Shown here piece after piece: positions 18,789-60,669 of a stretch of DNA of 64,000 nt. The notes beneath the pieces were generated by a model, which searched no databases, was not told where the DNA came from, and saw only the letters and a program-made list of their open reading frames with translations. Position 1 is the stretch's first letter, and every line of letters starts with the position of its first letter. The DNA comes from a virus. The position numbers were made by a program, and so were the translations under genes. The stretch lies in IMG/VR virus record IMGVR_UViG_3300006141_000001; one strand, written 5' to 3'.

Positions 18789-20120
18789 TTATAATCAACT
18801 CCTCCGCTTCTTCCATATCTGGGGCATCTGCACTGTCTTTAATAATTCCTTCAAGGACTTTAAAGCTAAAATTTTTATGTTTATATGCCTTAAATGTTTC
18901 CCTATTGTCAATCCTCACTACAACACCTTCCCTTACATGTGTCTTTCCAATCGGGTCTTCCCCATCATAATATTTTTCTACACGTTCCATTAAATCTTCC
19001 CATGTAGTAAAGACAAACTTTTCAAATGTGGGAACGCATTTAACTCCTAATTTCTCACATTCAATTTGAACTTGTTCCCATGGAATTTCTACAGTAAACC
19101 CATCTTCTCCTGTCATAGTCATACGATACACATAAATATCGTTTTCTCCTGGCTTACATCCATATGAAAATACCGTTTCTTTCCCATACTTCTTCTCAAA
19201 TTCCTTATCTTTTACTTTTTTATTGGAACATCTTCCCATTATTGTTTGGTCGCCTTCTGTATACCCAACAATTTCATAGAATATTTCTACTCCCTTGGGA
19301 AGCTTGTCTTTGAAGAAATTCTGATATTTTTCCCTGAATTTATTACTCCCATAAAATCCACCATTATAATCTTTTAAAACTTTCCTTCTAGTTCCGCTAA
19401 CAATCTTAAACTTACGAATTTCTTTATCATTCAGTTTGAATACTTTTTTTAGGAAAAGATTTCTTTTTCTTTTTTTCACCTCAATAGCATTCGCCGTGCG
19501 ATTCGATGTTCCATGCATCTTCAGCGTTATATAGCAAGTATCTCCTGGCTTGAATGCATTTTTATTATATGCAAGTTGCTCTGTGTCGCTATGTTCTTTA
19601 AAGAATGGATACGAAATTATTTCCTTTTCATCTTTTCTCTTCTTTTTCTTGTTATCGTGTGTGGCATTACTTCTTCTATTTGTCTTTGGAATATACTTCC
19701 TGCAAATCTCATGTCCATTCAGGACAGAAACTTTATCACCGTCAGATAAGGTTTCAATATCCACATATTTTCCCAACCTTTCGATTGGCAATACCAATCC
19801 ATCTGATTTCTCACCCCTTAATTTTAAAGCAGTAATATTCCTTTTGTTGGGGTCAAGATAACCACCAACATTATTCCCATCTCATCTTTTAACCTGACAA
19901 GATTATTCTCAATGGCAAATTCTTCACTTAACTGCCCATCTACAGGGAAATAGACTACTCTTTGTCCTTCTTTATACGATAAATCTACGATTACGTTATT
20001 TCCAAAAACTGTTGCGCATAACAACCTATCTGCATTACTATGCTTTCTAAGTTCTTTAATTGTTGTTATGTATCCACAATACCCATTGATAATATTCTGT
20101 TCCATTTCGCTTACCATCAT
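18781..20120 (-). CDS. ATP-dependent RNA ligase (Rnl2 or nick-sealing type) with an N-terminal OB-like module. It is interrupted by a 1-nt frameshift near 19840.
   Basis: Downstream ORF: motif I LKMHGTS (KxHGT as in T4 Rnl2), IFYEIVGY, EGVVVRID and KAYKHKNFSFK (motifs IV and V). Upstream 98-aa ORF: ITTIKELRKHSNADRL..GQRVVYFPVDGQLS, resembling the N-domain of some RNA ligases. The frames join as ...KDEMG/NNVGGYLDPNKR... Confidence 0.6.
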
Positions 20121-22769: not shown

Positions 22770-23795
22770 TTAAACTCCTTTCACAATTCGCTCATTTACA
22801 TACATTTTGAACTCATTGATTTTCTTATAGTCTGGAAAATCTGGAAGAGATGTGTTGTTTTTTGCATATTCAAACTTCTTCTCATACCCATCCAGTAAAT
22901 CATAAAACGCAGATGTAGGCTGCCTATTCTCATCAAGAAATTCACCATTCCTAATTCTCATAAGTAAATCATGCTCGTCTGCTCTATATGTGATGATTTC
23001 TTCTTTTTCGAGAATGTCAATGCACATCATGTAAAGCCGGATCAAATGTGCTGAATGTTTCCCTAATTTATCATGTGATATCGCTTTTTCATTTCGCTTC
23101 CCAATTTTATTATAACTGCTTACAATGGCCTTCATCTCGTTACACATTCCTGCCCAGTCCCTCAACGGATAATGCCTTAACCTTGCATCAATGAAAATTT
23201 CACTATCGTACCCTTCATGTTCTGATTTATCAATATAAAGTTTCACCCTGCTGTTGCTTTGCGGGTAATACCTATTCTTAAAATCATACTTCGCATTTTT
23301 TATGCTTTTAAGGATATATGCTTCATTTTGTGCCTGCCCTACTAACCTGGCCGATTTATTGCCCAACCTACGGAGCTGGGACTGGGCATACCCGCCGAAT
23401 GTATGGATGCAGATTTTGGAAAGAAACATTCTTTTGTTACCTAGAAGTTCTTTCCCAATATCAGATAAATATAGATAATGTTCCGGAAGGGAACCCAAAC
23501 ATTCGATTACATTAGGGTTGCATTTTGTAAGTAGCTCAATCATTTTATTAAATGAATACATCACGGTATCTGTTTCTGTATCTACAACCTGCCCAAAATC
23601 AGTCCCCAATAGGATATCTTTCTTAGAATTTAACGCAATCCCTCTTACATCCAAATCAGACCCTTCCTTTTCCATCCCATAAGCATGGCTTCCTCCTACT
23701 GTTAAAAGAATAATATTGCTACCTAAATTTTTATCTTTCTTCAAAAAAGCATACTCATCTGATTTTATTTTTTCTTTTATTTGCCCAATGTTCAT
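22770..23795 (-). CDS. Pol-beta-superfamily nucleotidyltransferase
   Basis: TVGGSHAYGMEKEGSDLDVRG matches the G[GS]-x(9-13)-DxD NTase signature. Confidence 0.65.
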   Translation of the reverse strand: MNIGQIKEKIKSDEYAFLKKDKNLGSNIILLTVGGSHAYGMEKEGSDLDVRGIALNSKKDILLGTDFGQVVDTETDTVMYSFNKMIELLTKCNPNVIECLGSLPEHYLYLSDIGKELLGNKRMFLSKICIHTFGGYAQSQLRRLGNKSARLVGQAQNEAYILKSIKNAKYDFKNRYYPQSNSRVKLYIDKSEHEGYDSEIFIDARLRHYPLRDWAGMCNEMKAIVSSYNKIGKRNEKAISHDKLGKHSAHLIRLYMMCIDILEKEEIITYRADEHDLLMRIRNGEFLDENRQPTSAFYDLLDGYEKKFEYAKNNTSLPDFPDYKKINEFKMYVNERIVKGV

Positions 23796-26497: not shown

Positions 26498-26680
26498 TTA
26501 AAAATTATTGTTTTTAATCAAATACAAACCTGAATATCCTCCCAATCCTCCTCCTTGTGTAGTTAACGCACAGGCAATTCCATCAGAATCATACACACGA
26601 TATCCTTGTTTATAATTTCTGGACAAATCCTTCCCATTGTCCAACCACTTATTGCTTTCTATCCCGCCAACAAATATCAA
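26498..26680 (-). CDS. C5-methyltransferase TRD-end-like fragment (TTG start, overlapping the upstream stop). Possibly a remnant or a frameshifted extension.
   Basis: NYKQGYRVYDSDGIACALTTQGGGLGGYSGLYLI resembles the conserved end of C5-MTase target-recognition domains. Confidence 0.3.
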   Translation of the reverse strand: MIFVGGIESNKWLDNGKDLSRNYKQGYRVYDSDGIACALTTQGGGLGGYSGLYLIKNNNF

Positions 26681-28500
26681 TTCATTGGCAGTTTCTGAAA
26701 ATTTTCTACAACTAAACTATCTTTTGGAGCTGTGGTGATGGCATTTGACAATCCATCATTCCGTATTTCTATTTTTTGTTTTATTTCTTCATTTGAATTA
26801 TACCTTCCACGCATAGCAGCACCAACACCATCTAATATAGCTGATTTATGTTCACAACAAATAGACTCATCTACATGTTGTTGAATAAAACTTTCTTGGA
26901 GTTTTTCATCGGTACATATATATGTATCATCATATTGAGCCTTATATAAATGCTCCGCTAATAACGCACAGCAATTTGTGATTATTCCATTCCCTGCTTG
27001 TTTATATAGATGTGTATTCGCAATACCTATTTCTGCAGCTTTATCACAATCTTCGAAAGTCAATCCCATGAGTTTATAACATTCTTTCGGAGTTAATTTA
27101 CGGATTCTAATTGTTTTATATAATCCGTTAATCACGGCATTTGTTGGTTGATTTCCAAATCCTTTATGATCTCTAGCAAGTAATGTACATGCAAAATCTA
27201 TTTCTTTCTCAGATTTAGTCCCTTGATTTGAAACTAAGACCGTAATATCTGGAATTTCAAGAACAGCCGTTCCTTCTTTTTTCCTATTGCTTGATCCCCG
27301 ATTTTCACTTGCAGTTATACAATTTGCATTTTCAATTATCTTAGGGTTGTTGGTTGTTTTATCTATTCCACATATGATTTTAGCATTATTACCATGTCCT
27401 GCCGTATGTGTTGGTGATATTCCTTCTGGTGATACGACTATTCCGTCTTGCGAGGAATTAATCTCTCCAACTTTCAAAATATTATTTTCTGTTAAGTACC
27501 ATCCAGTTTTTGCACCGCCTCCACCGGCCTCGGATTTTAACGTCCTGCTAATATTATCTGAATACACCCTATTTGCATCCCCGTTATAATTATTGATATA
27601 CCCTACTTGATGGAGTTCATTATCAATCCTGAAAATTTTTTCTAAATCAATAGTTTTTAGAAATTTTTTTACTTTTTCGTCTGGTAAATAATATTTTTCA
27701 TCAACTTCTTTTTCTAAAATATCTTTTAGGCGTATACCAGTATCGAATGGTTTAGGAAATACATATTTACCTTTATCAATATCTTTCCTAATAGATATTA
27801 CAAAAACCCTTTCTCTTGATTGCGGGACTCCACAATTTTTCCCGTTGATTATCGAGTAATAAGAATTAAACCCCAACCCATCTAATATTCCTAACAAATC
27901 ATTAAAATTATTGATAAATTTTTTACTCACAAGATTTTTGACATTTTCAAACATTATGTATTTTGGAAGGGAATTACTATCTTTTGCTTTCTTGAGCAAT
28001 CTTATGTTTTCCCATAGCAGGCTACTTCTTGTACCACTATCAGGATTTAACCCTTTCATTTTTCCGCAAACGCTGATATCCGTGCAAGGAAAAGAACATG
28101 TCCATAAATCTGCATATGGCAATTCTTCAATTTTACTTATATCCCCTAAATTATGCGTCAGTTTACAAGCCAACCAATATTTCTCCAGATCCTTCTTCTT
28201 TCTCTTCACTAATTTAAGCCAATCGGACTTCTTGCCTTTCTCAGGATCATAGCCCAAATTTATATCCATTAAGTGCTGAGCCATCTCTTCCTTGGACGGA
28301 TACCCCTTATATGAAATAACCATTCCATCCGTCAAGCCACAATGGATAGCAGCATATGATAACACAGATTCTTTGCTTATTTCTGATGTATTTACTACTT
28401 CAATGTCAAATACTCCTGAGTCCCTAAATCCTCTTGTTTGACATCCTATTCCTGAAAATAATTCGTTTACTGTTAATTTTATTTTCTTATTTTCTTCCAA
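26677..28500 (-). CDS. DNA (cytosine-5)-methyltransferase with repeated TRD-like segments. Possibly multispecific.
   Basis: Motif I FSGIGC, IV SFPCTDIS, VI MFENVKNL and VIII QSRERVFVI. Several target-recognition-domain-end-like stretches (ANRVYSDNISRTLKSEAGGGG, GIVVSPEGISPTHTAGHG). Motif IX is RKLTPKECYKLMGL and motif X is LYKQAGNGIITN, followed by a roughly 100-aa extension. Confidence 0.85.
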   Translation of the reverse strand: MEENKKIKLTVNELFSGIGCQTRGFRDSGVFDIEVVNTSEISKESVLSYAAIHCGLTDGMVISYKGYPSKEEMAQHLMDINLGYDPEKGKKSDWLKLVKRKKKDLEKYWLACKLTHNLGDISKIEELPYADLWTCSFPCTDISVCGKMKGLNPDSGTRSSLLWENIRLLKKAKDSNSLPKYIMFENVKNLVSKKFINNFNDLLGILDGLGFNSYYSIINGKNCGVPQSRERVFVISIRKDIDKGKYVFPKPFDTGIRLKDILEKEVDEKYYLPDEKVKKFLKTIDLEKIFRIDNELHQVGYINNYNGDANRVYSDNISRTLKSEAGGGGAKTGWYLTENNILKVGEINSSQDGIVVSPEGISPTHTAGHGNNAKIICGIDKTTNNPKIIENANCITASENRGSSNRKKEGTAVLEIPDITVLVSNQGTKSEKEIDFACTLLARDHKGFGNQPTNAVINGLYKTIRIRKLTPKECYKLMGLTFEDCDKAAEIGIANTHLYKQAGNGIITNCCALLAEHLYKAQYDDTYICTDEKLQESFIQQHVDESICCEHKSAILDGVGAAMRGRYNSNEEIKQKIEIRNDGLSNAITTAPKDSLVVENFQKLPMN

Positions 28501-35743: not shown

Positions 35744-36976
35744 TTAATCAGCTTGCTTTATATCGTTCCTTGCCTTTCCGAATGAGTGATAAATAACGTC
35801 AAATTGCTGTTTTAAGTCCTTTACCTCGAAGCTATCAACCGATTCAAATATTCCAGGAACTTCATTGCTGTGTGTTATGGAAAGAGAAATTTTCCAGCCT
35901 TTCCCATTAGAAAAATCTTTTTGTATTCTGTTTAATAATTCAGAAACATTCATTTTCCCATAACGCATTGTCCCTTGATGTTGGTTCGGTACATTTGTCA
36001 AATCTTCCATATCTGGATTGATTTCTTCTTTTCCGCACTCATTATCAATCCTGCCCGCCCCGTGCCTTGTTAGATATGGTCTTGTGACATAACAGACTTC
36101 AACATTTGAATCTGGAAACAATCTTAAAATCATTTCCGCCGGATTCTTTAATCCGGTGTTGCTTGGTGTCAAATGAGGAAAATATTCTTTATTATTCTGG
36201 TCTAACAGAAGTCCTTGCCCTCCCTCGAAAATAATATTCTGGTATTTTTCGAGTGCGTTTGTATCTCCGCAAACCGTTACATGACTTGCCGTAAATTCCA
36301 AATCTGAAAGAAACTGTTCAATCAACCCATCAGCATTTATTATTTCTTCCCATTCTCTACTTGACCGCATTTTCAATTCGTTAAAGCGTTTTGGCAGATA
36401 TGTATGTTTTATGGCTTTGATTGCATCTTTGTTCCGCTTGCCGCAATTCTCCAATAAAACCCATGCCGGATAACCATAGTTTTCCTCATAACGTTTAATG
36501 GTTTCAAAAATCCCCATGCCACAGCTTCCATGTCGCCCATTAGAACGGTTTTCTTCCAAAATCTGATTGATTATCATATCAAATGGTGTTGTTACTCTGC
36601 ACGAAGGATTCAAATATACTGTTGGTTCATATCCTAATTTCTGCAATTCTTCCCATTCTTGTCTGAATAAAATGGGATTTACAATAAACTCCTTTGATAA
36701 ATAAGTATCTGCTCCTGCAAAAACCCCGGAACCAAAATGGTGGAACACATGGTGCGACCCCTCCGCCGTGTCTACCGTATGCCCTCTTTGTGCGCCACCG
36801 TTATGGCACACTACAATACAGTTTTCACCCCGTAGGGCGGCTTGGTGGCAAAAATAATCTGCCACCAAGCCTTTTCCTTCATCACCAAAGTTTGCACCGA
36901 TTACAACTTTGATGTTTTTCTTTACCACGAAATCATCCCTCCTGCATTTTCTTCTGTTCTTGTTTCTGTCGCCCAC
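35744..36976 (-). CDS. adenylosuccinate-synthetase-family enzyme (divergent PurA/PurZ-like)
   Basis: VVIGANFGDEGKGLVAD (GDEGKG P-loop), NGGAQRGHTV, FEGGQGLLLD and YVTRPYLTRHGAGR. These align with the PurA motifs GDEGKGK, GGHNAGHT, FEGAQGTLLD and STRVGAGPF. Confidence 0.65.
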   Translation of the reverse strand: MGDRNKNRRKCRRDDFVVKKNIKVVIGANFGDEGKGLVADYFCHQAALRGENCIVVCHNGGAQRGHTVDTAEGSHHVFHHFGSGVFAGADTYLSKEFIVNPILFRQEWEELQKLGYEPTVYLNPSCRVTTPFDMIINQILEENRSNGRHGSCGMGIFETIKRYEENYGYPAWVLLENCGKRNKDAIKAIKHTYLPKRFNELKMRSSREWEEIINADGLIEQFLSDLEFTASHVTVCGDTNALEKYQNIIFEGGQGLLLDQNNKEYFPHLTPSNTGLKNPAEMILRLFPDSNVEVCYVTRPYLTRHGAGRIDNECGKEEINPDMEDLTNVPNQHQGTMRYGKMNVSELLNRIQKDFSNGKGWKISLSITHSNEVPGIFESVDSFEVKDLKQQFDVIYHSFGKARNDIKQAD

Positions 36977-37872
36977 GTTCCTGTATTGGTTACGATGTCC
37001 ACAATGGCGTTTGCAATATTATCCATGCTTACAGTACGCAAATGATTTTCGTCAAGATATTTTCCGAATGTTTCTTTGATACCAGATTCGTGGTATCTGT
37101 ATGAAGTCTGCGAATCATTAACTGCAAGGTGGTAAATATCAAATTTTCGGCTTGCTTCTTCGTATAAATCCTTTGTTTCTACATCGCCCTGCAAATTATC
37201 ACCTGTCACTCTGGAAAGTGGAGATTTTGGCAAATAAGGATTAAGTGGCTCATCACCCATAGTAATGACAATTCCTTTCTTGCCACGGTTCCAGCAATCC
37301 AATTTTGTATGCCGCAAGCCGAAATACCATGCCACCGTATATGATTCAAAAGAGTTTCCTCCACCGCCTCCCTCGAAGTAAATCTTATCAAGCTGCTCTG
37401 CAATCCTTATATCTGATTCAAATTGTGAAGCCTGTATTGGCGCATTGTCATAGGCTAAATCCCCAATGCCCATAATCATAAATTCCACATCTGCAACCTT
37501 TTCATAAAGTCTTGTCATAACTACATTCAGCTTCTTTGCGACTTCAACTGCCGCGCCACCCATGCTACCCGTTACATCAAGTCCTAAAATAACAGGAATG
37601 GTGTTCGGGTGTTCTGTTGAATCGCAACACTCACGCATTTTATTCTTTGGGTCTAATTCTGGCGCAATCATTCTCTGTTTGAACATATCCTGTGCATGAT
37701 AATCTCCTGAAATAGACCCGTCAGTTCCTACACTCATTTTCTTTGTTGATGAATAACTTCTGAAGCTATCCCTCGTCCAACTTCCGCTTCCCATATTATT
37801 CTTCCTCGCTTTCTTCGGATTCTTCGGCATTTTCTTCTTCGTCTTCGCCGTCAAAATCAAACATTCCCTCAA
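36922..37872 (-). CDS. von Willebrand factor A domain protein
   Basis: MIDAS motif ILGLDVTGSMGG (DxSxS), plus ITMGDEP. Confidence 0.65.
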   Translation of the reverse strand: MRECLILTAKTKKKMPKNPKKARKNNMGSGSWTRDSFRSYSSTKKMSVGTDGSISGDYHAQDMFKQRMIAPELDPKNKMRECCDSTEHPNTIPVILGLDVTGSMGGAAVEVAKKLNVVMTRLYEKVADVEFMIMGIGDLAYDNAPIQASQFESDIRIAEQLDKIYFEGGGGGNSFESYTVAWYFGLRHTKLDCWNRGKKGIVITMGDEPLNPYLPKSPLSRVTGDNLQGDVETKDLYEEASRKFDIYHLAVNDSQTSYRYHESGIKETFGKYLDENHLRTVSMDNIANAIVDIVTNTGTWATETRTEENAGGMISW

Positions 37873-38395
37873 ACATATTTCCCATGCTGCCGCCCATCAT
37901 CATAAATGGAAGCATTGCACTCATTCCGGATTCTCCGCTGTTCTCATTTCCTTTCATCATTTCTGACATCATCATGTACTGCATGATTTTGTTGGTTCCT
38001 TTCTTGCCCTTAATCATGTCGCTGCCGAACATGGAAACGATTTTCCCATAGAAGTACGTATTGCCCATAAATACATGACGCTCTGGCAGAATGTTCTCCA
38101 CTGTTGAATCCTCGTAGTTGATAACCGTTAGCATATTCTTTTTGGACTCAATAACACATTTCGGCTTTCCGGCAACCAAGATAATGTCGCCAACCTCTGC
38201 TTTGTTGGTTGGAATTACAAAGAAAAATTCCTCCCCAATGTTGAATACGAAGCTATCACAGTTCGTCAGTCTTCCAGATTTTACATTGTAGCTTTTGTAG
38301 CCGTTTGCTGTCTTCACGGCAATGCCGCCACTCATTGACAACCTACACATTCCTGGCTGCACTTTCCCAAACATTCCATTTAACATATTAGTCAT
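37796..38395 (-). CDS. hypothetical protein with a Met/Gly-rich and acidic C-terminus
   Basis: C-terminal MMMSEMMKGNENSGESGMSAMLPFMMMGGSMGNMFEGMFDFDGEDEEENAEESEESEEE. Confidence 0.45.
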   Translation of the reverse strand: MTNMLNGMFGKVQPGMCRLSMSGGIAVKTANGYKSYNVKSGRLTNCDSFVFNIGEEFFFVIPTNKAEVGDIILVAGKPKCVIESKKNMLTVINYEDSTVENILPERHVFMGNTYFYGKIVSMFGSDMIKGKKGTNKIMQYMMMSEMMKGNENSGESGMSAMLPFMMMGGSMGNMFEGMFDFDGEDEEENAEESEESEEE

Positions 38396-38466
38396 CTTAA
38401 AATTCCTCCTATAAAATAAATTTTTATTATTTGCGGACTTCCCACGAAAGAAAGTCCGCTGTGTGG

Positions 38467-38682
38467 CTACCTAAAGAACAAAAGGTATATTGCGCTTGCG
38501 AAAATGCCGATTACATCAAGTAAAAGGAAAAGGATAATCGGATATCCGCTTTTTGGCAGGTAATTCCTGTTAAAGGCTGTCTTCAATGTTTCTTCTGGAT
38601 TGAATTTCAACCACGCTCTCCAAATCCAAATGTATAATGCAGTCACCATAACCGCTAAAACTGTCAATTTTACAATAATCAT
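38467..38682 (-). CDS. small membrane protein
   Basis: Two hydrophobic helices. Confidence 0.45.
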   Translation of the reverse strand: MIIVKLTVLAVMVTALYIWIWRAWLKFNPEETLKTAFNRNYLPKSGYPIILFLLLDVIGIFASAIYLLFFR

Positions 38683-38764
38683 GTTCGCCCTCCCTTAAAA
38701 CGGTGCTTTCTGTTCTTCTGCTTCCTGTTCGTCCTCAAGCCATGCCATAAGGTGTATGGGGAGG

Positions 38765-39178
38765 TTAATCTTTGCTTTGATACCTCTCGTAGTCAATCGT
38801 TTCAAATTCATCAAAGACATTCGGATAAAATATACCCATCCAAAAATCTTTCTGAATACGCTTGTTGTAAACTGCGTCTTGATTCCAGTCTTGAATTTCG
38901 TCTATGATTTCTTTGCTTAACAATCCAAGCTCGTCACGACACGCACCGCTTTCCAGTTTGTATGTAAGTGCCTTGTATTGCTCTTTCCATAACTCAACTT
39001 GTGCGTCTGCGGTACAATGTGTACTGACAATCACAATCAACATGATTGCAGCAACAATTCCGCTGATTACACCAACAATCCAACCGAATAAAGAAAGCAC
39101 ATCAAAGTCATACTCGCAAGCAACTATTCCTCCAGTAACCCCTGCAACCGTTAAAATTACAAAAATCCAAAATATCAT
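38765..39178 (-). CDS. membrane protein
   Basis: N-terminal paired TM helices (IFWIFVILTVAGVTGGIVA, WIVGVISGIVAAIMLIVIV). Confidence 0.5.
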   Translation of the reverse strand: MIFWIFVILTVAGVTGGIVACEYDFDVLSLFGWIVGVISGIVAAIMLIVIVSTHCTADAQVELWKEQYKALTYKLESGACRDELGLLSKEIIDEIQDWNQDAVYNKRIQKDFWMGIFYPNVFDEFETIDYERYQSKD

Positions 39179-39181
39179 TCC

Positions 39182-39484
39182 TCAATCCTCTCTTTCTTCA
39201 TAAATCTGCAATGTTCCGTCTGCGTTGTAGAGTGGGGTAATGCCTGTTCTGTAGCCAGATGTATTGACAAAATATTTTACTTTCGTGTCATTTGCATAGA
39301 CAATTCTATATGTTCCATAACTTCCATCTCCCCACTCGGAAATTGTAGTAAAATACCCATTTCCGAAATCACCGCTTGTATTACTTTCTGTCTGCCCTGT
39401 CGCCTCTTGATATGTAGTGCCGCACCCAACCAGGCAAATCACCATCACAACCGCCAATGCCACAATTAAAATTCGTTTCTTCAT
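39182..39484 (-). CDS. putative lipoprotein
   Basis: Signal peptide with a lipobox (MKKRILIVALAVVMVICLVGC). Confidence 0.5.
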   Translation of the reverse strand: MKKRILIVALAVVMVICLVGCGTTYQEATGQTESNTSGDFGNGYFTTISEWGDGSYGTYRIVYANDTKVKYFVNTSGYRTGITPLYNADGTLQIYEERED

Positions 39485-39789
39485 TTTAAAACCCTCCTAT
39501 TCCATAGCTTAATAACACCAGAACTTGATGAAGAATAAGTCCCGTTAATTGATGCAGTATTCATAAGACATTTAGTGCATTGAATAACAACCCCCTCATC
39601 CCCTCCTATCCTTAGTTCTTGTAAGACATTAATTTCTGCTACTCCGCCACAAAATAGACAGTTCTTTATTTCTGAATTTAACTTATAAACTCTATCCCCT
39701 AATGGGACTCTAAGGTTATCTAAATCCCATTCATTTTTTTCAATTATTTTCCTTGGAATCCAGAACTGCTGACGTAATCCATAATCCAT
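39481..39789 (-). CDS. Lar-family-like zinc-ribbon protein (putative restriction alleviation)
   Basis: CLFCGGVAEI...VIQCTKCLMNT resembles the Lar motif PCPFCGG...C..C. Confidence 0.45.
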   Translation of the reverse strand: MDYGLRQQFWIPRKIIEKNEWDLDNLRVPLGDRVYKLNSEIKNCLFCGGVAEINVLQELRIGGDEGVVIQCTKCLMNTASINGTYSSSSSGVIKLWNRRVLK

Positions 39790-40046: not shown

Positions 40047-40676
40047 TCACTCAGCACATAAATTGGCAAATTTGATTTTTCCAAAATAAGTTAATATCTT
40101 TTCTACTTTCAACCCAACTTCTACATCCCTTATATTGGTTATAATATCTGTGATATTTGTTTCTGAAAGACTCATGACTGTATCATAATTCCCAGAATAC
40201 TTTCCATCTTCAACAATCGGTTCGCTCAATCCATAATAAAAATAAACATCTTCTTTCTCAGCATCAATACTAATTTTACTTAATTCTTTTTTTGAAATTC
40301 CATTATATACAAGCCAAGCATCAAGGGCTTTATTTGCCAGAATATATTCCCCTTGCTTATAAAAATATGGTGACAAAAACTTGTTTTTTAATATTCTTCC
40401 TACGGATTCATCACCTATTTTCACTTTATCAGAGTATAATACAATGTTTTCTCTACCAGATGAGAATCCAATAATCACCTCGCTCCAATACCCTTTTGAC
40501 TCTATAATGGTTTTTATATCTTTTTTATTTGTTATATAACATTTTGAATTGGTAATATCCTTGCATTCAGAAAAAACCCTGGCAAAAATATCATCCTGTT
40601 CTTTATATGTCATATAAAAATCTTTCCCCAACTTATCTAAAATGTCTTTTTCTTTATAGCATCTGTATTGTGTCAT
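40047..40676 (-). CDS. hypothetical protein
   Basis: ORF track. Confidence 0.45.
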   Translation of the reverse strand: MTQYRCYKEKDILDKLGKDFYMTYKEQDDIFARVFSECKDITNSKCYITNKKDIKTIIESKGYWSEVIIGFSSGRENIVLYSDKVKIGDESVGRILKNKFLSPYFYKQGEYILANKALDAWLVYNGISKKELSKISIDAEKEDVYFYYGLSEPIVEDGKYSGNYDTVMSLSETNITDIITNIRDVEVGLKVEKILTYFGKIKFANLCAE

Positions 40677-41200
40677 GGCTTGTCAACTCCTTCCAATATT
40701 TCATTTAGAGTCTTTGGCATAAATCCAATTATATCCACTCCCACATTATAAGCATTCTTAATTTTTGATATATATTGATTAGTGCTATTCTCAAAATTGT
40801 TGTGGATATGTCCATAAAAATGCAATGTATTTCTATAATACCCATCCCACTCCACCATAGGATAATGACAGCATATAATCCGTTTTCCACTGTCATTGAC
40901 CGTTTTTATAAAAGTAACTGATGAGAAATACTTTTCATACTTCTTATTGCTTAATAATTTATTGTCATGGTTCCCTATAATCAAATGTTTCTTCCCTTTC
41001 AATTTTTTAAGGTATGAAATAGGGTCTTGACTTTTATATGCAAAATCTCCTAAGATATAAATATTATCACTGTCTGTTACTCTATTATTCCAATTTTCGA
41101 TAATTGCTTTATCCATTTCTTTTATTGATTCAAATGGTCTTTTTGATAATTTAAGGATATTTTCATGTCCAAAATGAGTATCTGCAATATAATAATTCAT
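40673..41200 (-). CDS. calcineurin-like metallophosphoesterase
   Basis: IADTHFGH, ILGDFAY, GNHDN and GHIH motifs. Confidence 0.75.
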   Translation of the reverse strand: MNYYIADTHFGHENILKLSKRPFESIKEMDKAIIENWNNRVTDSDNIYILGDFAYKSQDPISYLKKLKGKKHLIIGNHDNKLLSNKKYEKYFSSVTFIKTVNDSGKRIICCHYPMVEWDGYYRNTLHFYGHIHNNFENSTNQYISKIKNAYNVGVDIIGFMPKTLNEILEGVDKP

Positions 41201-41246: not shown

Positions 41247-42032
41247 TTAAGAAACAAGACCAACTCCAATGCCAGGATTAAAACTTGGCATAAGCTGTAA
41301 TTTGAATAAGTTTTTCTTATGCATTGTATCAATTTTCTTTTTTACTTCTTGGTCTTCAATTTCACCTGTACGGATGTATCTATCCAACACCTCATAAGTA
41401 AAGCCAAAATTCTCTTCATCTGTCTTTCCGCAAAGCCCATCAGATGGTGTTTTATCAATTAATTTGTCTGGTAACCCCAACACTCTCCCAATCTGTTTAA
41501 TTTCTGTAACCGTAAGGTTAGAAAGCGGACTAAAATCTCCAACTGAATCCCCATACCTCGTACTATATCCTATCCAATCCTCTGACAAATTACATGTATT
41601 TGCCACCCTACCATCCATACTTTGGCTTACAGCATATAAAGTTGCCATACGGATACGAGCAGGAAGATTAATTTCTGCCTGTTCTGTCAAACTATCATTA
41701 TCATCAAAAGCATTGAGAATATCATACTTTAAAGTATTCAAAGTATGTCCAATCGGAACTAAAGCAAAATTAATTCCAAGATACCTGCATAATAAATAAC
41801 TACAGTCAATATCTGTCTGAAGTCCATTTGGCATAAGAACGCCAAACACTCTATCTTTACCAAGTGCCTCTGCACATAGGGCAGCTACTACAGAACTATC
41901 TTTTCCACCTGAAATTCCAATTACTGCTTTACAACCCTTGCCATTATCCTCAAAGCATCCTTTAATCCAATTTACGCATTTATTCTTTACTTCTACTGCG
42001 TTAAAATCATCTATCATTGTCCTAACCTCCAA
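41247..42032 (-). CDS. nadE: NH3-dependent NAD+ synthetase
   Basis: PP-loop VIGISGGKDSSVVAAL. Length and architecture match NadE. Confidence 0.75.
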   Translation of the reverse strand: MEVRTMIDDFNAVEVKNKCVNWIKGCFEDNGKGCKAVIGISGGKDSSVVAALCAEALGKDRVFGVLMPNGLQTDIDCSYLLCRYLGINFALVPIGHTLNTLKYDILNAFDDNDSLTEQAEINLPARIRMATLYAVSQSMDGRVANTCNLSEDWIGYSTRYGDSVGDFSPLSNLTVTEIKQIGRVLGLPDKLIDKTPSDGLCGKTDEENFGFTYEVLDRYIRTGEIEDQEVKKKIDTMHKKNLFKLQLMPSFNPGIGVGLVS

Positions 42033-42228: not shown

Positions 42229-42855
42229 TCAAAATCCACTTTTGCGATAAACGTTATCTGTGTTTTCCAGATACTCAAAAACACATTCTGGGACATAATC
42301 CTTAACCGAGCCTAACTGGTTATTGACATACGCCTCCCTTATCTGTGTCGATGATACTTCTTGATATGCCCCTTCAATATATCTAAAATTACCATTATAT
42401 TGCATTAATGATTCATGTAATTTCCCATTGTCATTATTCCTAGTAATCACCAAAAACCTATTATCCCTAACTACCTCTTCTGCTTTATACCATCTGTGGA
42501 TTTCACAAAGTTTGTCTGCCCCAATGCATATAATAGGATCCATTTTTCTATAATACTGGATTGTATTATATGTTTTGCCATCTACTGTCCCATTTATCTC
42601 AATGTTCGATACATGAAAACCGAATTTTTTCACTGCCTCATGTAATAGCAGGAATCTCTTATCTCCATCCAATACCATCCCATCTCCGTACTTTTTCCAG
42701 TCTTTTAAAAATTTATCATTAGATGGAACAAAAACAATATTAGCTGATGGATATACCATCTTGCAACAAATGCCCATATTTATATGGGCATTTGTCACAG
42801 GATTAAAAGCACCAAAAATCAATACTGACTTATTCATACTGCAATCTCCAGTCAA
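42229..42855 (-). CDS. nadD: nicotinate/nicotinamide mononucleotide adenylyltransferase (NadD/NMNAT family)
   Basis: LIFGAFNPVTNAH ((H/T)xGH motif), ICIGADKL, VSSTQIREAY (ISSTxIR) and VPECVFEYL. Confidence 0.65.
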   Translation of the reverse strand: MTGDCSMNKSVLIFGAFNPVTNAHINMGICCKMVYPSANIVFVPSNDKFLKDWKKYGDGMVLDGDKRFLLLHEAVKKFGFHVSNIEINGTVDGKTYNTIQYYRKMDPIICIGADKLCEIHRWYKAEEVVRDNRFLVITRNNDNGKLHESLMQYNGNFRYIEGAYQEVSSTQIREAYVNNQLGSVKDYVPECVFEYLENTDNVYRKSGF

Positions 42856-44035
42856 TACATCTCTGCAAATAGTTTACATAATCGAGGTTCTTGCAAATTC
42901 CTTTCCCAACATCATCTGAAATCTTTGCCACATCTTGTCCATTACATTTTGTAACTTTCATGACAATATTCAACGGCTCCACATCCGTATCATTAGAAAT
43001 ATAAGTCCCTATCCCAAACGCAATCTTTGCCCTTTCTTTAAAATAATGATAGATTTTATCTGCTTTTTCAAAGTTTAAACTGTCACTAAAAAGCAATGTC
43101 TTACTCCTTGGGTCTATCCCTAGATCTTTATAATGGTTAATTATTTTTTCTCCCCATTCATACGGACTGCCACTATCATGTCTCACACCACTGAATAAAG
43201 TGGCATAAGTAAGGTTAAAATCTTTCAAAAAACAATCTGTCCCAATGGTATCTGTAAGAGCCGTCCCATTAAGGATCCCATATTCTCTTACCCAAGCTTC
43301 CATCGCATACCAATTCGAATAAGCAGGATTATGCTTATGGTTCCCTTGGCCTACACACATAATAAACTCATGCGCTTGGGTTCCTGTGGGCATTAAATTA
43401 TACTTCATTGCCAAATAAACGTTAGAAGTCCCAACAAAAACTGAGCAGCAATATTTGATTCCAGATAACTTTTGCACTGCCATTTCTTGAGCTTCGGCAG
43501 AAAGCCTGCGCCTAAGTCCAAATTCACTAAAAGAAGAGAGATAATACCTTCCTTGATATATTCCTAGCCATTCCGCTTTCTCCTCCAATTTTTCTGTAAA
43601 CACTTCCATCAAATGTCTATAATTATGTGCCATTTTAAAATACACTTCATTTACTATTGCTAAAACCGGGATCTCATACATACTTGTGTTAAGCCATGTA
43701 CCTTTAGTTTCAATCACCAGACCACATTTTGAATTAACTGTTATATCAAAATCCTCAAAACGTGGCTGCCATAAACGCAAAAAATCCACATAATTTCCCT
43801 TAATCCAACGAATATTTTTTAAATATTGAAGCTCCTGTTCAGTAAACTTAAGGCTACAATACAATTTAATTTGGCGCTTAATCTCTTGAACCATTTCAGG
43901 CGTAAAAAATATATCTTTATTACGGCATTTAAACGTCCAAGTAGTTTTATAGTCCGAAAATTGATGAAGAATGACTTGCCCCATACTAAATTTGTATAAA
44001 TCATTCTCCAATAAACTATTAATAATCCTATCCAT
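42830..44035 (-). CDS. pncB: nicotinate phosphoribosyltransferase
   Basis: LLENDLYKFSMGQ (compare E. coli PncB LLDTDAYKLHMQQ), GTQAHE, GVRHDSGSPYEWGEK and LNIVMKVTKCNGQDVAKISD. Confidence 0.8.
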   Translation of the reverse strand: MDRIINSLLENDLYKFSMGQVILHQFSDYKTTWTFKCRNKDIFFTPEMVQEIKRQIKLYCSLKFTEQELQYLKNIRWIKGNYVDFLRLWQPRFEDFDITVNSKCGLVIETKGTWLNTSMYEIPVLAIVNEVYFKMAHNYRHLMEVFTEKLEEKAEWLGIYQGRYYLSSFSEFGLRRRLSAEAQEMAVQKLSGIKYCCSVFVGTSNVYLAMKYNLMPTGTQAHEFIMCVGQGNHKHNPAYSNWYAMEAWVREYGILNGTALTDTIGTDCFLKDFNLTYATLFSGVRHDSGSPYEWGEKIINHYKDLGIDPRSKTLLFSDSLNFEKADKIYHYFKERAKIAFGIGTYISNDTDVEPLNIVMKVTKCNGQDVAKISDDVGKGICKNLDYVNYLQRCIDWRLQYE

Positions 44036-44038: not shown

Positions 44039-44581
44039 TCATTCTCCAACTTTCTTTAATCTATTAAAGGCGTTGTTGTCTTCATTCATTATTTTTAACA
44101 TCCATGTATTGATAAAATTTTTGTCATTTACATGCATAGCCATAGGTTTACTCATCCTATTTTTCCACCACATATATTCTTTTTCATATGTAAAATCCTT
44201 ACCGTAATATGCCCTTCCTGCCCCAAGAAAATCGCATAACATTTCTTTTTTATACTTCAATGGCATCTCAATGGCTATTCCGCCATCATCAAAATTATCC
44301 TGCCAGTACTCATAGTGATGCTTATTCCTCCCCTTATGATGCATCCACGCCTTTGACCAGCCATTCTCTTTTTTACAAGCATCAATAGGGCTGGAATTTC
44401 CTTGATAATATTTCACACCCTCCCAAAATTCTACAGAAGAAAATTTTGACATATCATGGAATAGTCCTTGTAAAGGGATTCCCATCTTCCAACAATAGTA
44501 AAATACCCAATATTTATGGACGCAGACCTTCTTAAAATGCTTAAAAATATTCACAATTTTAATCATCCTAATTCTTCCCAC
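44039..44581 (-). CDS. HD-like metal-dependent hydrolase of unknown function, embedded in the NAD module
   Basis: Ordered H / HD / H..H / D pattern: CVHKYW, LFHDMSKF, WMHHKGRNKHHYEYW and DDGGIAIE. Confidence 0.4.
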   Translation of the reverse strand: MGRIRMIKIVNIFKHFKKVCVHKYWVFYYCWKMGIPLQGLFHDMSKFSSVEFWEGVKYYQGNSSPIDACKKENGWSKAWMHHKGRNKHHYEYWQDNFDDGGIAIEMPLKYKKEMLCDFLGAGRAYYGKDFTYEKEYMWWKNRMSKPMAMHVNDKNFINTWMLKIMNEDNNAFNRLKKVGE

Positions 44582-45117
44582 ACCGTTTTTTTATTTACAT
44601 GGATTTGACACATTTTCATAGTCAGCAATGCTGCTTTATGCGCATCCGGAGAAGTGCCTGCACAACAATCCACATCTACAGAAATTTCAATATCTGGGAA
44701 ATTTGCCTTCAACAGCAAAGCGTTTGATACAACACATATGTCCGTACATAATCCAACAATTTCAATTTCTAACCTCTCTTTTCTATCCAAGATCCTTCTT
44801 ATTTCATTTATAAGGCGGGTTGATCCAAACGTTCTTTTCTCAATAATTTTATAATCCTTTCCCACTAATACATCACGGACATCCTTATTCAAAACCCATC
44901 CGTTAGTCATTCTAATACAATGGGCAACTGGTAAATGCTTCCCTTCAAAAGTTTCTAAATAATTGTCATCATGTGTATCCAATGTTGCAAAAATCTTCCC
45001 ATCAAACCCTTTTATTTTATCTACTACATTTCCAACAATGTCTTTTGCTTCCTTTGTTCCGAGTGAGCCGTCAATAAAATCATTTTGCATATCAACCACA
45101 ACCAAAATACTACTCAT
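44563..45117 (-). CDS. pncA: isochorismatase-fold nicotinamidase (PncA-like)
   Basis: N-terminal LVVVDMQNDF signature and Cys in VGLCTDICV. Confidence 0.65.
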   Translation of the reverse strand: MSSILVVVDMQNDFIDGSLGTKEAKDIVGNVVDKIKGFDGKIFATLDTHDDNYLETFEGKHLPVAHCIRMTNGWVLNKDVRDVLVGKDYKIIEKRTFGSTRLINEIRRILDRKERLEIEIVGLCTDICVVSNALLLKANFPDIEISVDVDCCAGTSPDAHKAALLTMKMCQIHVNKKTVWEELG

Positions 45118-45200: not shown

Positions 45201-46220
45201 TTAATCTTCCTCATATGGGCATTCTGGCAATGCTCCGCTCAATATTGCATTTCCACAAGTGATGCGCCCCAAGTCCTCATACTCGCTTGCGATAAACACA
45301 AGCACATCAAATCCGGCTTTCTTCAAATCCTCTTCAATGTGTCGGTATGGATACATGGTTGTATAATCTCCGCTTGTTTCAATACCGTTTTTAAGGGCGG
45401 TATGTGTTTTGTGCATAGGTGTCAACTTGACAAGGAATTTTTCGGGATTGAATAAATCTCTCATCTTCTCTGCATTGACCTCATAATCAGCAACCGCAAA
45501 ATTCAATGTAATTTTTCTTCCCTTTGGCATTTCAAGGCTTCTTCCAATATTTGAAATTTCCTGCAATGTCAGAGAATTTCCGCTAAACATATCCTCTCTT
45601 TCGCTGTCAGAAGTGGAATTGATGGAGAATTGCAATCCGGCATCCCCCGAAAAATCTTTGTTCTTAATCTCCATCCACACTTCAAGATAATCAGCTAATT
45701 TTGTGTTGTTCTTCGGTAACATGGTGGAAACAACGGGATGAATAAGGCTGTCACCGATATATGGTTTTAATTCTTCTCTCATATTCTTTGTAAACTCCAA
45801 AACCGCCCAATTCCATGTAGGCTCTCCCATTCTCGCATAATGCACATTCAAGCGGTTTGTATGAGTGATTTCTGGGTGCAATGATAAGCCGGTTACAATC
45901 TGACTTTTCAAATCATCGTATGTAGCGTTTATGCCTTTTCCGACTTTCGGCACATCACAGAATTTGCAGTTCATGGAGCAACCGTACTGTGTGCTGATTG
46001 TGATTACCCACTTTTCGGAAAGCGGTAACATTTGCTGATGTTCTACATGGTCTATCTCCCTTGTCAAGCCCATGAAATCAGCCTTTAAGTTCGCTTCTTT
46101 CCCATAGTCTCCGATTGACAGACATTCAAGTTTTCCCTTGTCACCCTCAACAATCATAATGTTTCCAGTTGGTACTTTTATATTTCTTAAAATTTTTATT
46201 TCCAAATCCTCCAATCTCAT
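45201..46220 (-). CDS. radical SAM enzyme of the RlmN/Cfr-like family (RNA C-methylating type)
   Basis: ISTQYGCSMNCKFCDV (CxxxCxxC; compare RlmN SSQVGCALECKFCST), ARMGEP (MGMGEP) and C-terminal RITCGNAIL (compare DIDAACGQL). Confidence 0.6.
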   Translation of the reverse strand: MRLEDLEIKILRNIKVPTGNIMIVEGDKGKLECLSIGDYGKEANLKADFMGLTREIDHVEHQQMLPLSEKWVITISTQYGCSMNCKFCDVPKVGKGINATYDDLKSQIVTGLSLHPEITHTNRLNVHYARMGEPTWNWAVLEFTKNMREELKPYIGDSLIHPVVSTMLPKNNTKLADYLEVWMEIKNKDFSGDAGLQFSINSTSDSEREDMFSGNSLTLQEISNIGRSLEMPKGRKITLNFAVADYEVNAEKMRDLFNPEKFLVKLTPMHKTHTALKNGIETSGDYTTMYPYRHIEEDLKKAGFDVLVFIASEYEDLGRITCGNAILSGALPECPYEED

Positions 46221-49416: not shown

Positions 49417-50268
49417 TTATTCTTCCAAAGCTTTTATAAGCTGCTCAATATATTCCCTCCCTTCTCCCTTAAAGACAGGAATGTCTTTATCAATAATCCA
49501 AGAACTGATGTTTTGACCCAAATTACGCAACATACATCTCTCTGTCACACTAACCTTCTCTAACATAATTTCATTTTTAACTACACACGTGCCTCTTTTT
49601 TGGTATGTAGGAAAATCATTCCAATTTATTCCTTTTTGGATCATTAACATGTCCTGGATATCATTATTGGTTTTATTCTGTAATTCTTTATGGCTAAAAT
49701 TAGCACGTCCCACCATTTGGACGCTATTTCTGGACGCATCTAACTGCCTCCAATATATATAATTTGTAACTTCCTCTTTGGGAATATTGAATACTCTAGC
49801 ATCAAACATTGCCCCCTTATCCTTTGCTTCATAATATTTTTTTACTAAATACCTATATTCGTGTTCTTCGATATTTTTTGGTTCGAAATTATCAAACTCA
49901 AAAACGTTTTGTTCGAAAATGCGATTAAAAGCTAAAGTCGCCATACTTGCAATAATACTACACATTTTTTGAACTTCATAATCAAACCATGAAGAAGAAT
50001 TAAGCCTTTTATAATCTACCAATACTAAAGAAATCTCATCTGACTGAGTATACCCAAGAACACATCCCTGGACATTCTCGCAAAGATATCTTGTAGTTTT
50101 CTGTATTGTATCAATCAGGACATCATCAAACGGCCTTCTAAAATTTCTGGCAAACGTATGGAACGCCCTCCCATCAACCCTGCATATGACTGGACAACGC
50201 CTCATAAGTTTTGTTTTTGGAATCCGCTCATAAAAAGTTTTCATCCTATCGCCAAGATTATCTCTCAT
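49417..50268 (-). CDS. Thg1-like protein (tRNA 3'-5' nucleotidyltransferase, TLP)
   Basis: N-terminal GDRMKTFYER...VICRVDGRAFHTF matches the Thg1-family signature (KFEYV...RVDGxxFHxF). Length is Thg1-like. Confidence 0.65.
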   Translation of the reverse strand: MRDNLGDRMKTFYERIPKTKLMRRCPVICRVDGRAFHTFARNFRRPFDDVLIDTIQKTTRYLCENVQGCVLGYTQSDEISLVLVDYKRLNSSSWFDYEVQKMCSIIASMATLAFNRIFEQNVFEFDNFEPKNIEEHEYRYLVKKYYEAKDKGAMFDARVFNIPKEEVTNYIYWRQLDASRNSVQMVGRANFSHKELQNKTNNDIQDMLMIQKGINWNDFPTYQKRGTCVVKNEIMLEKVSVTERCMLRNLGQNISSWIIDKDIPVFKGEGREYIEQLIKALEE

Positions 50269-57314: not shown

Positions 57315-58715
57315 TTAAGCAGCATTTTCTTGTATCTTACAATATTTAATAAAATCTTCTTTCATATGAAGATAATTCTTCTTCTGGTCTTTAAAATATG
57401 TATTATTACTTTTCGCATATTGTTCCATCCATGTATCCAAATTTTTATCTGCTTGATGCGAGTATACAACCATTGCTAATAATGATGGACGGTTTTCATC
57501 TTGCAATAATTTTGAATCACATTTTATTGTCCTATCTTCAAGTTCATCTAAGACATCGTTGTAATAATCAATATCATCTCTGATTGTTTTCTTATCAATC
57601 CCTGTATTTTCTATTAAAAATTCATTAATAGAAATAGTATCCTTTCCATCTTTTTCGTCACAAGGTTCTGTGTCAATCCCTAAAAATTCTCTCATCATTC
57701 CTTCCAACATGTCTAATTTAGCAATAATAACCGTCTTATCCTTTGTTGATTTATCTTTATCTATTTCATCAAATAAAAGATTATTTTTATTCTTTCTACA
57801 ATTCCTTAAATTATTTTTAAACTCTAACAGGAACTGCTCAAACTTTATATCTTCTATTCCATAACGAGTGAATCTGTCAAACAGTGTTAAAAATATAAAA
57901 GAATCTTTACTATTAAAAATAATTTTTGTTTCTTCAGAAATAATTTCTTCCAATCTATGTAAGTTGTTTTCAACTTTTTCAAAATCCTCATCTTTTGCAC
58001 AGTTATTCAAATATTTACATGCTAATTTTGCATTTTTCTTCCAATCATCTAAATAATCAGAACACATGATAGTTTCAGCAATTGTTCTTTCAATAACGCC
58101 TTTTATTTTTTCTATTTCCTTAAAATCGCTTTTTTCTATAAAAAATTTACTATTTGTTATTCTACGAACATTTGGTGCAAAATTATATAAATATGTAAAT
58201 GCTTTCTGATTACTATTCATTGAAATATGGTTGTTATATATTTTTACATATTTAGACAACCTTTTCCTGTCGCAGTTTTCATGAATGACAGTCTCTATTT
58301 GGTATTCATCGAATTTTTTCTTTAACTCATCTGGAAGTTTATCATATGTTTTATTTTTTATATCAAACGTCCCATCCTCCCAATGGATTTTTCCGTCTTC
58401 ACTTATTATTTTCTTCTTATAAACTATCTTAGAATCATCTATCGTAGATGTGATTTTATGGTTTCCATATCTAAATTTATCTAATGCCTTTGTCCTACAT
58501 CCGCCATCTACAATATGTAATTGTGAATCATTTTCTTCTCCAAGTATAATTGGCGGGATATAATCATCTGTCAAAACCGTATAAATTAATTCATTGATCT
58601 GCTCATTCTTCCACGCAAAATCCCTCTGTGTGTCTGCATCATTACATATATCCCCATCTTTTGTCTTTGCCAAATACATATCTAATGTATAAGTCTGTTT
58701 TCTTGGTCTCGCCAT
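57315..58715 (-). CDS. DUF262 (ParB/Srx-fold, GmrSD or DndB-like N-domain) protein
   Basis: TQRDFAW (QR..VW motif) and IVDGGCRTKAL (DGQQR-like). Confidence 0.55.
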   Translation of the reverse strand: MARPRKQTYTLDMYLAKTKDGDICNDADTQRDFAWKNEQINELIYTVLTDDYIPPIILGEENDSQLHIVDGGCRTKALDKFRYGNHKITSTIDDSKIVYKKKIISEDGKIHWEDGTFDIKNKTYDKLPDELKKKFDEYQIETVIHENCDRKRLSKYVKIYNNHISMNSNQKAFTYLYNFAPNVRRITNSKFFIEKSDFKEIEKIKGVIERTIAETIMCSDYLDDWKKNAKLACKYLNNCAKDEDFEKVENNLHRLEEIISEETKIIFNSKDSFIFLTLFDRFTRYGIEDIKFEQFLLEFKNNLRNCRKNKNNLLFDEIDKDKSTKDKTVIIAKLDMLEGMMREFLGIDTEPCDEKDGKDTISINEFLIENTGIDKKTIRDDIDYYNDVLDELEDRTIKCDSKLLQDENRPSLLAMVVYSHQADKNLDTWMEQYAKSNNTYFKDQKKNYLHMKEDFIKYCKIQENAA

Positions 58716-60588: not shown

Positions 60589-60669
60589 ACGTAGGTTCCT
60601 TTGGGATTCGAACCAAAACTTATCGTTTATGAGGCGATTGGTCTGACCGTTGAACTAGGAGCCTACGCA
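60589..60669 (-). tRNA. tRNA-like element (CAT anticodon-loop-like). Non-canonical and possibly degenerate.
   Basis: Minus strand: acceptor GCGTAGG / CCTACGT (7 bp, one G-U), T-loop signature TTTGG-TTCGAAT-CCCAA, and a CTCATAA loop flanked by ATCG/CGAT. The D-arm and the T-stem to acceptor junction do not fit a standard cloverleaf. Confidence 0.3.

Follow-up and report, generated by a model that had tools for sequence, protein, structure and literature searches.

Which reaction is catalysed by a phage enzyme that resembles both adenylosuccinate synthetase (PurA) and its 2-aminoadenine-producing paralogue PurZ, and why is it encoded with two partners of no obvious metabolic function? The question is raised by the IMG/VR virus record IMGVR_UViG_3300006141_000001, of which a stretch of 64,000 nucleotides (hereafter the window) was analyzed. 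On the minus strand of the window, the gene of an adenylosuccinate-synthetase-family enzyme is preceded by genes for a von Willebrand factor A (vWA) protein and for a Met/Gly-rich protein with an acidic tail (Met-rich protein). Judged by its sequence, the enzyme is a member of a third, phage-specific clade within the adenylosuccinate synthetase superfamily that is neither PurA nor PurZ, and the three genes form a predicted translationally coupled operon in the order Met-rich, vWA, enzyme. An earlier examination of the letters of the locus (the sequence-only reading) had pointed to PurZ and to coupling with membrane proteins, and both suggestions are revised below.

Affiliation of the PurA-like enzyme

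The open reading frame (ORF) at 35744-36976 (-), which the sequence-only reading had assigned to the adenylosuccinate synthetase family by its motifs, carries GDEGKG, GHT, FEGGQGLLLD, and TRHGAG and is a genuine member. It matches the Pfam family PF00709 (Adenylsucc_synt) with 116.6 bits (cut-off 27; E 1.6e-33), with ORF residues 24-317 aligned to positions 1-279 of the 416-position model, and it matches phrog_1211 (E 1.8e-66), a PHROG labelled ‘2-aminooxy adenylosuccinate synthetase’. The reading of the enzyme as a divergent, non-canonical member of the PurA/PurZ superfamily also holds, as its scores lie far below the cut-offs for both PurA and PurZ. The enzyme falls short of all NCBIfam PurA equivalog cut-offs (TIGR00184, 82.4 vs 395.55; NF002223, 92.3 vs 402; NF010355, 62 vs 445; NF010357, 68.8 vs 700; NF003295, 51.1 vs 368), and its scores are no better than those of PurZ on the same models; Escherichia coli PurA, used as a control for the PurA models, scores 697 and 688. 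The best PDB matches are bacterial PurA at only E 1e-13, and no solved structure is closer.

Residues were compared in an alignment to E. coli PurA (TIGR00184/NF002223), whose numbering is used here, and were counted over 210-211 clade members. The clade shares with PurA the PF00709 domain, the FEGxQG and TRxGxG motifs, and a C-terminal SxGxxR motif, and the P-loop (GDEGKG), Asp13, Lys16, Gly40/His41, Gln224, Leu228, Thr239, and the TRxGxG motif are invariant in it. On the other hand, the guanine motif (N/T)KxD, which is TKLD in PurA, reads THxN in the clade (Lys331 to His in 208/211 members, Asp333 to Asn in 196/211), Val273 is His in 211/211 members, and Asn38 and Thr129 are replaced throughout by Gln and Cys. 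The Asp loop (Gly298-Arg305) is shortened in all members, which leaves an equivalent of R306 only and none of Arg303 or Arg305. New invariant His/His/Gln residues surround the active site, and the C-terminal domain is approximately 40 amino acids (aa) shorter than that of PurA. Among the ligands of the 5′-phosphate of inosine monophosphate (IMP), T239 is kept, N38 and T129 are changed as above, and R143 is kept or lost depending on the alignment used. The loss of Arg143 was dropped as firm evidence since the two alignments disagree, and nothing is drawn from this residue.

In PurA, the retained residues serve phosphoryl transfer to the purine O6, whereas the changed ones serve recognition of the guanine of GTP and binding of L-aspartate. 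This distribution of retained and changed residues suggests that the O6 chemistry is kept, that the donor is probably not specific to GTP, and that the amine substrate or its binding may differ.

Tests against PurZ

The lead that the enzyme is of the PurZ type, making 2-aminoadenine precursors for a Z-genome, did not survive. The idea draws on the PurZ-type label of phrog_1211 and on the same label in the records of related phages, namely Pleione (NC_023737 gp268), Rhizobium phage Y65 (NC_070967 gp019), and Vibrio phage pv27 (OR413349 CDS0145). However, the PurZ model NF038379 gives the enzyme 46.6 bits against a cut-off of 300, whereas the PurZ proteins of phiVC8 and S-2L pass as controls with 397 and 350 bits. 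Moreover, Asp13 of the GDEGKG motif is kept in 210/210 clade members, whereas it is replaced by Ser in all 147 phage PurZ/PurZ0 sequences (PMC12884076); these 147 are drawn from the 481 phage PF00709 proteins of that 2026 survey, in which the remainder was not characterized (PMC12884076). As PurA paralogues of phages, PurZ and PurZ0 (phiVC8, S-2L, Gordonia phage Archimedes) do resemble the clade in having lost guanine-specific recognition of the nucleoside triphosphate (NTP) and in being shorter than bacterial PurA.

PurZ also clusters with DatZ/MazZ/DpoZ or DutZ/DmtZ, whereas the clade is linked to vWA. The sequence-only reading had seen no MazZ, DatZ, or DpoZ, and tblastn searches with DatZ, MazZ, DpoZ, and PrimPol of phiVC8 and S-2L, which did not extend to DutZ and DmtZ, likewise gave no match in the 64 kb of the phage genome that the window covers or in MT835469, a relative of 176 kb with all three module genes. 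The clade and DatZ/PurZ occur in different sets of phages: DatZ (94 records) and PurZ (201 records) are found mainly in Vibrio, Aeromonas, Acinetobacter, Arthrobacter, and Microbacterium phages, and the enzyme (231 GenBank phage records) mainly in phages of Mycobacterium (202) and Rhizobium (10) and in separate Vibrio phages of approximately 191 kb (6). A PurZ function is contradicted by these observations and is scarcely credible. Given the retained Asp13 and the failed PurZ model, the PurZ label on RefSeq and GenBank records of clade members is likely an annotation error that arose via phrog_1211.

Operon structure and linkage to the vWA gene

The enzyme most likely starts at GTG 36928, because an AGGAGG lies 9 nt upstream and homologues measure 382-394 aa, and the 410-aa product reported in the sequence-only reading is accordingly shortened to 394 aa. 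The vWA gene starts at ATG 37794, since all close homologues have the resulting length of 290 aa. With these starts, the previously noted overlap of the two genes is real but spans 7 nt (GTGGTAA) instead of 55 nt, and the Met-rich gene, whose existence and acidic tail are confirmed, ends 1 nt before the vWA start. A stable hairpin (Table 1) is located in the 71-nt spacer 5′ of the Met-rich gene and is followed by A/T-rich sequence and then by the AGGAGG of that gene. The hairpin was not called by a consensus terminator scan, and the promoter/terminator scan was uninformative; it probably marks the 5′ edge of the transcription unit. The gene overlap, the 1-nt gap, and the upstream hairpin together argue for a tightly coupled unit of three genes.

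The coupling proposed in the sequence-only reading stands for the vWA and Met-rich genes but not for the membrane proteins, as the membrane protein and DUF6440 lipoprotein genes recur in at most two of the 89 related loci. Because they are not conserved with the module, these proteins were rejected as members of the system, and the true unit is 35744-38395. By comparison, in all 89 of the 89 viral loci whose upstream sequence was long enough to be scored, the vWA gene is located directly upstream of the enzyme gene and on the same strand, and when the search was made from the vWA side, in a collection of bacterial and archaeal genomes, the enzyme gene was directly downstream in 70/70 usable loci, which makes 159/159 scorable loci. 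The two genes are adjacent in Rhizobium phage Y65, and one small ORF separates them in Vibrio phage pv27 and Mycobacterium phage Pleione. The proteins of these Rhizobium, Vibrio, and Mycobacterium phages are only 27-39% identical to those of the window. Linkage this strict at such low identity, together with the stop/start overlap, strongly indicates a shared function, and the enzyme and the vWA protein may form a physical complex, as we infer from the gene linkage.

The linkage bears on the simplest alternative, an auxiliary gene for an ordinary but diverged adenylosuccinate synthetase, beside which the vWA and Met-rich genes are unrelated neighbours. That bacterial PurA is the best PDB and NCBIfam match and that the catalytic residues are conserved would fit such a gene, and a published survey puts the non-PurZ phage homologues with PurA (10.1101/2025.10.22.683976). 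Nevertheless, scores of 82-145 bits against cut-offs near 400 place the enzyme no closer to PurA than PurZ is, and an unrelated neighbour would hardly be retained in every scorable locus despite low identity and with overlapping stop and start codons. PurA itself is not encoded with a vWA partner as the clade always is, and an ordinary PurA is thus improbable.

The cluster C mycobacteriophages, whose ‘PurA-like adenylosuccinate synthetase’ (Pleione gp268, with gp266 upstream) belongs to the same clade and follows the same vWA-then-enzyme order, are the nearest annotated and cultivable phages with clade members. The Pleione enzyme and vWA protein are only 27% and 33% identical to those of the window, and the upstream partner in cluster C is a J-domain and protein-kinase-like protein, whereas that of the window is the Met-rich protein. 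No functional study of the module genes of these phages was found in the literature searched.

The vWA partner protein

The 290-aa protein has no Pfam or NCBIfam match at threshold (the best is CobT_C, E 0.05-0.09), and a PDB sequence search with its profile returned nothing meaningful. A first AlphaFold model, built on a shallow alignment limited to sequences with identities of 69% or more, reached a predicted local distance difference test (pLDDT) score of 55 and was discarded. An alignment of 78 sequences that included distant relatives gave a model with a pLDDT of 86.8 and a predicted template modelling (pTM) score of 0.87, and the top structural matches of this predicted fold are all non-enzymatic vWA domains. 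The protein is therefore predicted to have a vWA fold. Over 384 family members, residues of the metal-ion-dependent adhesion site (MIDAS) type are essentially fixed (D73 in 384/384, T/S75 in 384/384, S77 in 383/384, and D181 in 382/384), which points to a strictly conserved MIDAS-like site (DxSxS and Asp; the Thr element is not assigned) as a predicted metal site. R54, E55, D112, F125, E126, E150, Y152, and the N-terminal Met-Gly are likewise essentially invariant. The family comprises 2408 clusters at E ≤ 1e-3 in a library that was clustered at 50% identity and holds a single representative of each cluster. Of the 150 representatives listed, nearly all are stand-alone proteins of approximately 280-350 aa, and 143 start with Met-Gly (consensus MG[GS]G[SR][WYF]).

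The mycobacteriophage orthologue P0370 (595 aa) has an intein-like insertion of approximately 290 aa between KGY and IFIGDE, just before the MIDAS Asp; inteins are usually found at functionally critical sites. In the family representative P0411 (409 aa), a C-terminal U-box-like sequence, CPISHEVMEDPVIAEDGFTYER, constitutes the only fusion identified, two of the longer proteins among the 150 having been read in sequence.

Two further readings of the module were considered. In the first, the vWA-like protein would itself be an enzyme, such as a metal-dependent lyase or phosphatase, with the dicarboxylate product of the PurA-like enzyme as its substrate, so that the pair would complete the conversion without host PurB. 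The invariant charged residues around the MIDAS (R54, E55, D73, D112, E126, E150, Y152, D181, and E182) are unusually many for an adaptor, and the intein-like insertion is located at the GDE motif. In addition, adenylosuccinate contains an aspartyl group, and aspartyl carboxylates are known ligands of MIDAS sites. We know of no vWA domain that acts as a lyase, however, and the top structural matches are all non-enzymatic; PurZ phages, moreover, depend on host PurB (10.1101/2025.10.22.683976). We give such a two-step pathway little credence.

In the second, the enzyme would be a ligase with new chemistry: either the amine that it attaches to an activated purine nucleotide would not be free L-aspartate, or its nucleotide would not be IMP but, for instance, inosine triphosphate or its deoxy form (ITP/dITP) or a dinucleotide. 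Such a ligase would yield a novel nucleotide, a signal, an inhibitor, or a protein-nucleotide conjugate, with the invariant N-terminal glycine of the vWA protein as a candidate acceptor. The prevalence of the Met-Gly start is consistent with this, as are the Asp loop cut back in all members without Arg303/Arg305, the new invariant His/His/Gln residues near the active site, and the strict gene coupling, which would yield one-to-one expression. An accessory or counter-defense context with NADAR, Macro, Lar, and RNA-repair genes (see below) also fits. Yet the aspartate-using PurZ is likewise variable at the loop, so that the loop change alone is no proof of a new substrate, no specialized downstream enzyme is conserved with the module, and to our knowledge there is no precedent for protein ‘purinylation’. 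A new ligase is rather unlikely.

The Met-rich protein and an alternative upstream partner

The Met-rich protein begins with a globular domain, continues with a Met-rich segment and a repeated (M/V)FD-G-MFDFD motif, and ends in a poly-acidic tail; in the gut-phage group, its C-terminus reads ...MMMGG.MG.MFDGMFDFD before the acidic tail. No significant match was found in Pfam, NCBIfam, or PADLOC, no PHROGs family contains it, and a PDB sequence search with its profile gave nothing meaningful; with the PADLOC defense models, none of the three module proteins matched at E ≤ 0.1. The gene is located directly upstream of the vWA gene in 159/177 loci, and among close relatives its product is the best conserved of the three (84% identity in locus L016, vs 71% and 55% for the other two). 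In proteobacterial-type phages (Vibrio, Rhizobium, and others), the same position is taken by a protein of approximately 220-260 aa that resembles the Met-rich protein in its N-terminal domain, is rich in Met in its C-terminal part, and ends with an [F/Y/H]FD motif. These proteins are probably distant homologues of the Met-rich protein, although comparing the profiles gives no more than a suggestion of this (hhalign E 2.5e-4, probability 43%). In the Rhizobium lineage, a small HIRAN-domain protein is encoded between the Met-rich and vWA genes (L001:4664-4981, Y65 gp017).

In seven loci, including the cluster C mycobacteriophages, the Met-rich gene is absent, and a protein with an N-terminal J-domain (HPD motif) and a protein-kinase-like C-terminal part (DnaJ, E 3e-8; Pkinase, E 9e-9) is encoded directly upstream of the vWA gene (Table 1). 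The two upstream partners are mutually exclusive within the fetched flanks. A tblastn search of GenBank phages with the J-domain protein of this module gave no match.

This exchange of either a Met-rich or a J-domain and kinase-like protein, never both, would suit a non-catalytic NTPase with an adaptor, in which the PurA-like P-loop acts as an NTP switch, the vWA protein binds a target protein, and the upstream partner connects the pair to chaperones. vWA proteins are classically adaptors for ATPases, and the module resembles the MoxR-vWA pairs (CbbQ-CbbO, RavA-ViaA), BchI-BchD, and CobS-CobT in that a MIDAS vWA protein is encoded beside a P-loop NTP user. In those systems, however, the partner is an AAA+ ATPase, whereas here it is a PurA-fold synthetase and no AAA+ gene is conserved nearby. 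Moreover, D13, H41, Q224, and T239 are invariant, and a mere switch would not need them. We judge a purely switch-like function to be quite improbable.

NAD+ salvage genes and genomic setting

The window is an accessory region of a large phage, a virus of gut Clostridia. With approximately 31-41% G+C it is AT-rich, its GC skew is strongly negative, and all credible genes are on the minus strand. A megablast of 15 kb found no DNA match to GenBank phages. At the protein level, relatives are found on viral contigs measuring roughly 90-215 kb as well as on contigs with an assignment to Lachnospiraceae, Ruminococcus, or other Clostridia; some relatives, at minimum, are prophages, because the Clostridia-assigned contigs include isolate genomes.

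A complete Preiss-Handler (nicotinamide-to-NAD) gene set is located 4-8 kb upstream of the module in the window (Table 1). Such genes are not peculiar to this phage, as NAD salvage genes occur in the fetched flanks of 49/177 loci (28%), in four lineages with differing NAD enzymes. The gut-phage lineage has the PncA/NadE set near the module, the Rhizobium phages have a phosphoribosyltransferase-like gene with NMNAT/Nudix, and in two further lineages NAMPT lies directly upstream, and NADAR or Macro-domain genes are close by. The latter genes are found a few kb downstream of the module, beside NAMPT, in two proteobacterial-type lineages (L181:11396-11833 and L182:16054-16743); the NADAR and Macro families are generally known to reverse ADP-ribosylation. 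Since NARP1 plus NARP2 are reported from approximately 5% of phage genomes (bioRxiv 10.1101/2024.02.11.579819), the association at 28% of loci looks real. NARP2 (Nampt and Nmnat) and Preiss-Handler genes are thus frequent neighbours of the module in four lineages, with which it plausibly has an accessory or counter-defense context in common. The module proteins themselves have no homology to the NARP1, NARP2, or NARP3 enzymes, are absent from the published pathways, and are linked to them by position only. NARP3, which consists of PnuC and NadR, was considered as a related system and set aside as unrelated.

Table 1. Location of the module, its neighbours in the window, and the J-domain and kinase-like genes of related loci.
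Feature	Location	Strand	Remarks
Adenylosuccinate-synthetase-family enzyme, 394 aa, MVKKNIKV start	35744-36928	-	mechanical ORF to 36976; PF00709, phrog_1211
vWA/MIDAS protein, 290 aa, MGSGSW... start	36922-37794	-	stop overlaps enzyme GTG start
Met/Gly-rich acidic-tail protein, 199 aa	37796-38395	-	first gene of predicted operon; stop 1 nt before vWA ATG
RNA hairpin, 11-bp stem, 5-nt loop	38433-38459	-	minimum free energy -18.7 kcal/mol, z -4.13 vs 200 shuffles
Two membrane proteins	38467-38682, 38765-39178		in interval of the sequence-only reading
DUF6440 lipoprotein	39182-39484		in interval of the sequence-only reading
Calcineurin-like phosphoesterase	40673-41200	-	after NadE
NadE	41247-42032	-	
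NMNAT-like	42229-42855	-	
NAPRT	42830-44035	-	
DUF5662 protein	44039-44581	-	
PncA, isochorismatase-type	44563-45117	-	
J-domain and kinase-like gene	L003:3556-4686		
J-domain and kinase-like gene	L065:2984-3988		
J-domain and kinase-like gene	L076:3062-4063		
J-domain and kinase-like gene	L096:1087-2118		
J-domain and kinase-like gene	L183:6919-7980		

The window also encodes RNA-repair-type and other accessory proteins. A polynucleotide-kinase-like AAA_33 kinase and HD domain protein is located at 17874-18788 (-), an RNA ligase at 18781-19797 (-), an RlaP nucleotidyltransferase at 22770-23795 (-), and a Thg1-like 3′-5′ polymerase at 49417-50268 (-); RlaP and polynucleotide-kinase-type genes are also present near the module in the actinophage-type loci L003 and L183. 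A Lar-like restriction-alleviation protein (PF14354) is encoded at 39481-39789 (-), just upstream of the lipoprotein and membrane genes, and L016 and L018 likewise have a Lar-like gene, approximately 4.5 kb downstream of the module. Further accessory genes at 26677-28500, 9115-10161, 12532-13608, 45201-46220, and 57315-58715 (-) encode a C5 cytosine DNA methylase and PAPS-reductase-domain, SPASM-domain, sub-threshold radical-SAM, and phage-encoded GmrSD_N-domain proteins. The only tRNA in the 64 kb is a tRNA-Met (CAT) at 60591-60664 (-).

Proposed role and implications

The explanation that we tentatively prefer, at a little under an even chance, is a complex of the PurA-like, vWA, and Met-rich proteins that would carry out NTP-driven amination of purine nucleotides and supply adenylate and NAD during infection. 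With its full catalytic set retained, the enzyme would phosphorylate the 6-oxo group of the purine with an NTP and then exchange it for an amine. The donor is probably ATP rather than GTP, as the guanine-specific (N/T)KxD motif is lost. The enzyme would work in a complex with the vWA protein. The ligand at the vWA metal site may be a carboxylate or a phosphate, for which the FD/acidic tail of the Met-rich protein is one candidate. The enzyme would most likely serve to produce AMP-type from IMP-type nucleotides during infection, and the product may feed the adenylate pool drawn on by the neighbouring NAD+ salvage enzymes. The module would accordingly belong to auxiliary metabolism or counter-defense and not to replacement of a DNA base.

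Several points weigh against this proposal. IMP and aspartate may not be the substrates, because R303 and R305 have no counterpart and T129 and N38 are replaced by Cys and Gln. The supply of adenylate gives no reason for the presence of the vWA and Met-rich (or J-domain) proteins, and the amination and adenylate-supply role is, like the physical interaction of the three proteins, a deduction, in the latter case from gene linkage only. No NAD gene is present in the fetched flanks of 72% of the loci, and none in the actinophage lineage. The NAD association could be overstated through kinship among the loci and because accessory genes cluster in general, and the NAD link could even be a mere effect of such clustering.

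A role of the enzyme in nucleotide modification or signalling, as proposed in the sequence-only reading, is no more than a possibility. In another, rather unlikely reading, the clade would not produce free adenylosuccinate; with its shortened aspartate loop and its MIDAS partner, it would couple an activated 6-oxopurine nucleotide to another amine, for example the invariant N-terminal glycine of the vWA protein, or would take a different nucleotide such as the ITP/dITP produced by ATP-deaminating defenses. If true, large phages would counter immunity that targets NAD or ATP by means of a nucleotide conjugate or a repair reaction not known before.

No description of a PurA-like/vWA module was found in the searchable literature, including work on mycobacteriophages and anti-defense. 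Phage homologues of PurA have so far been sorted as ‘PurZ’, for 2-aminoadenine DNA, or as ‘just PurA’, and the very large third group described here fits neither. The group extends over thousands of phages, a scale apparent from the 2408 clusters at 50% identity of the vWA partner and from the approximately 230 GenBank phage records with the enzyme, of which roughly 200 are cultivable cluster C mycobacteriophages. The function of the module can be tested directly, since it is found in cultivable phages that infect Mycobacterium smegmatis, Vibrio, and Rhizobium. The recurrent position of the module by NAD+ salvage genes suggests that it is a new piece of the phage response to metabolite-depleting immunity.

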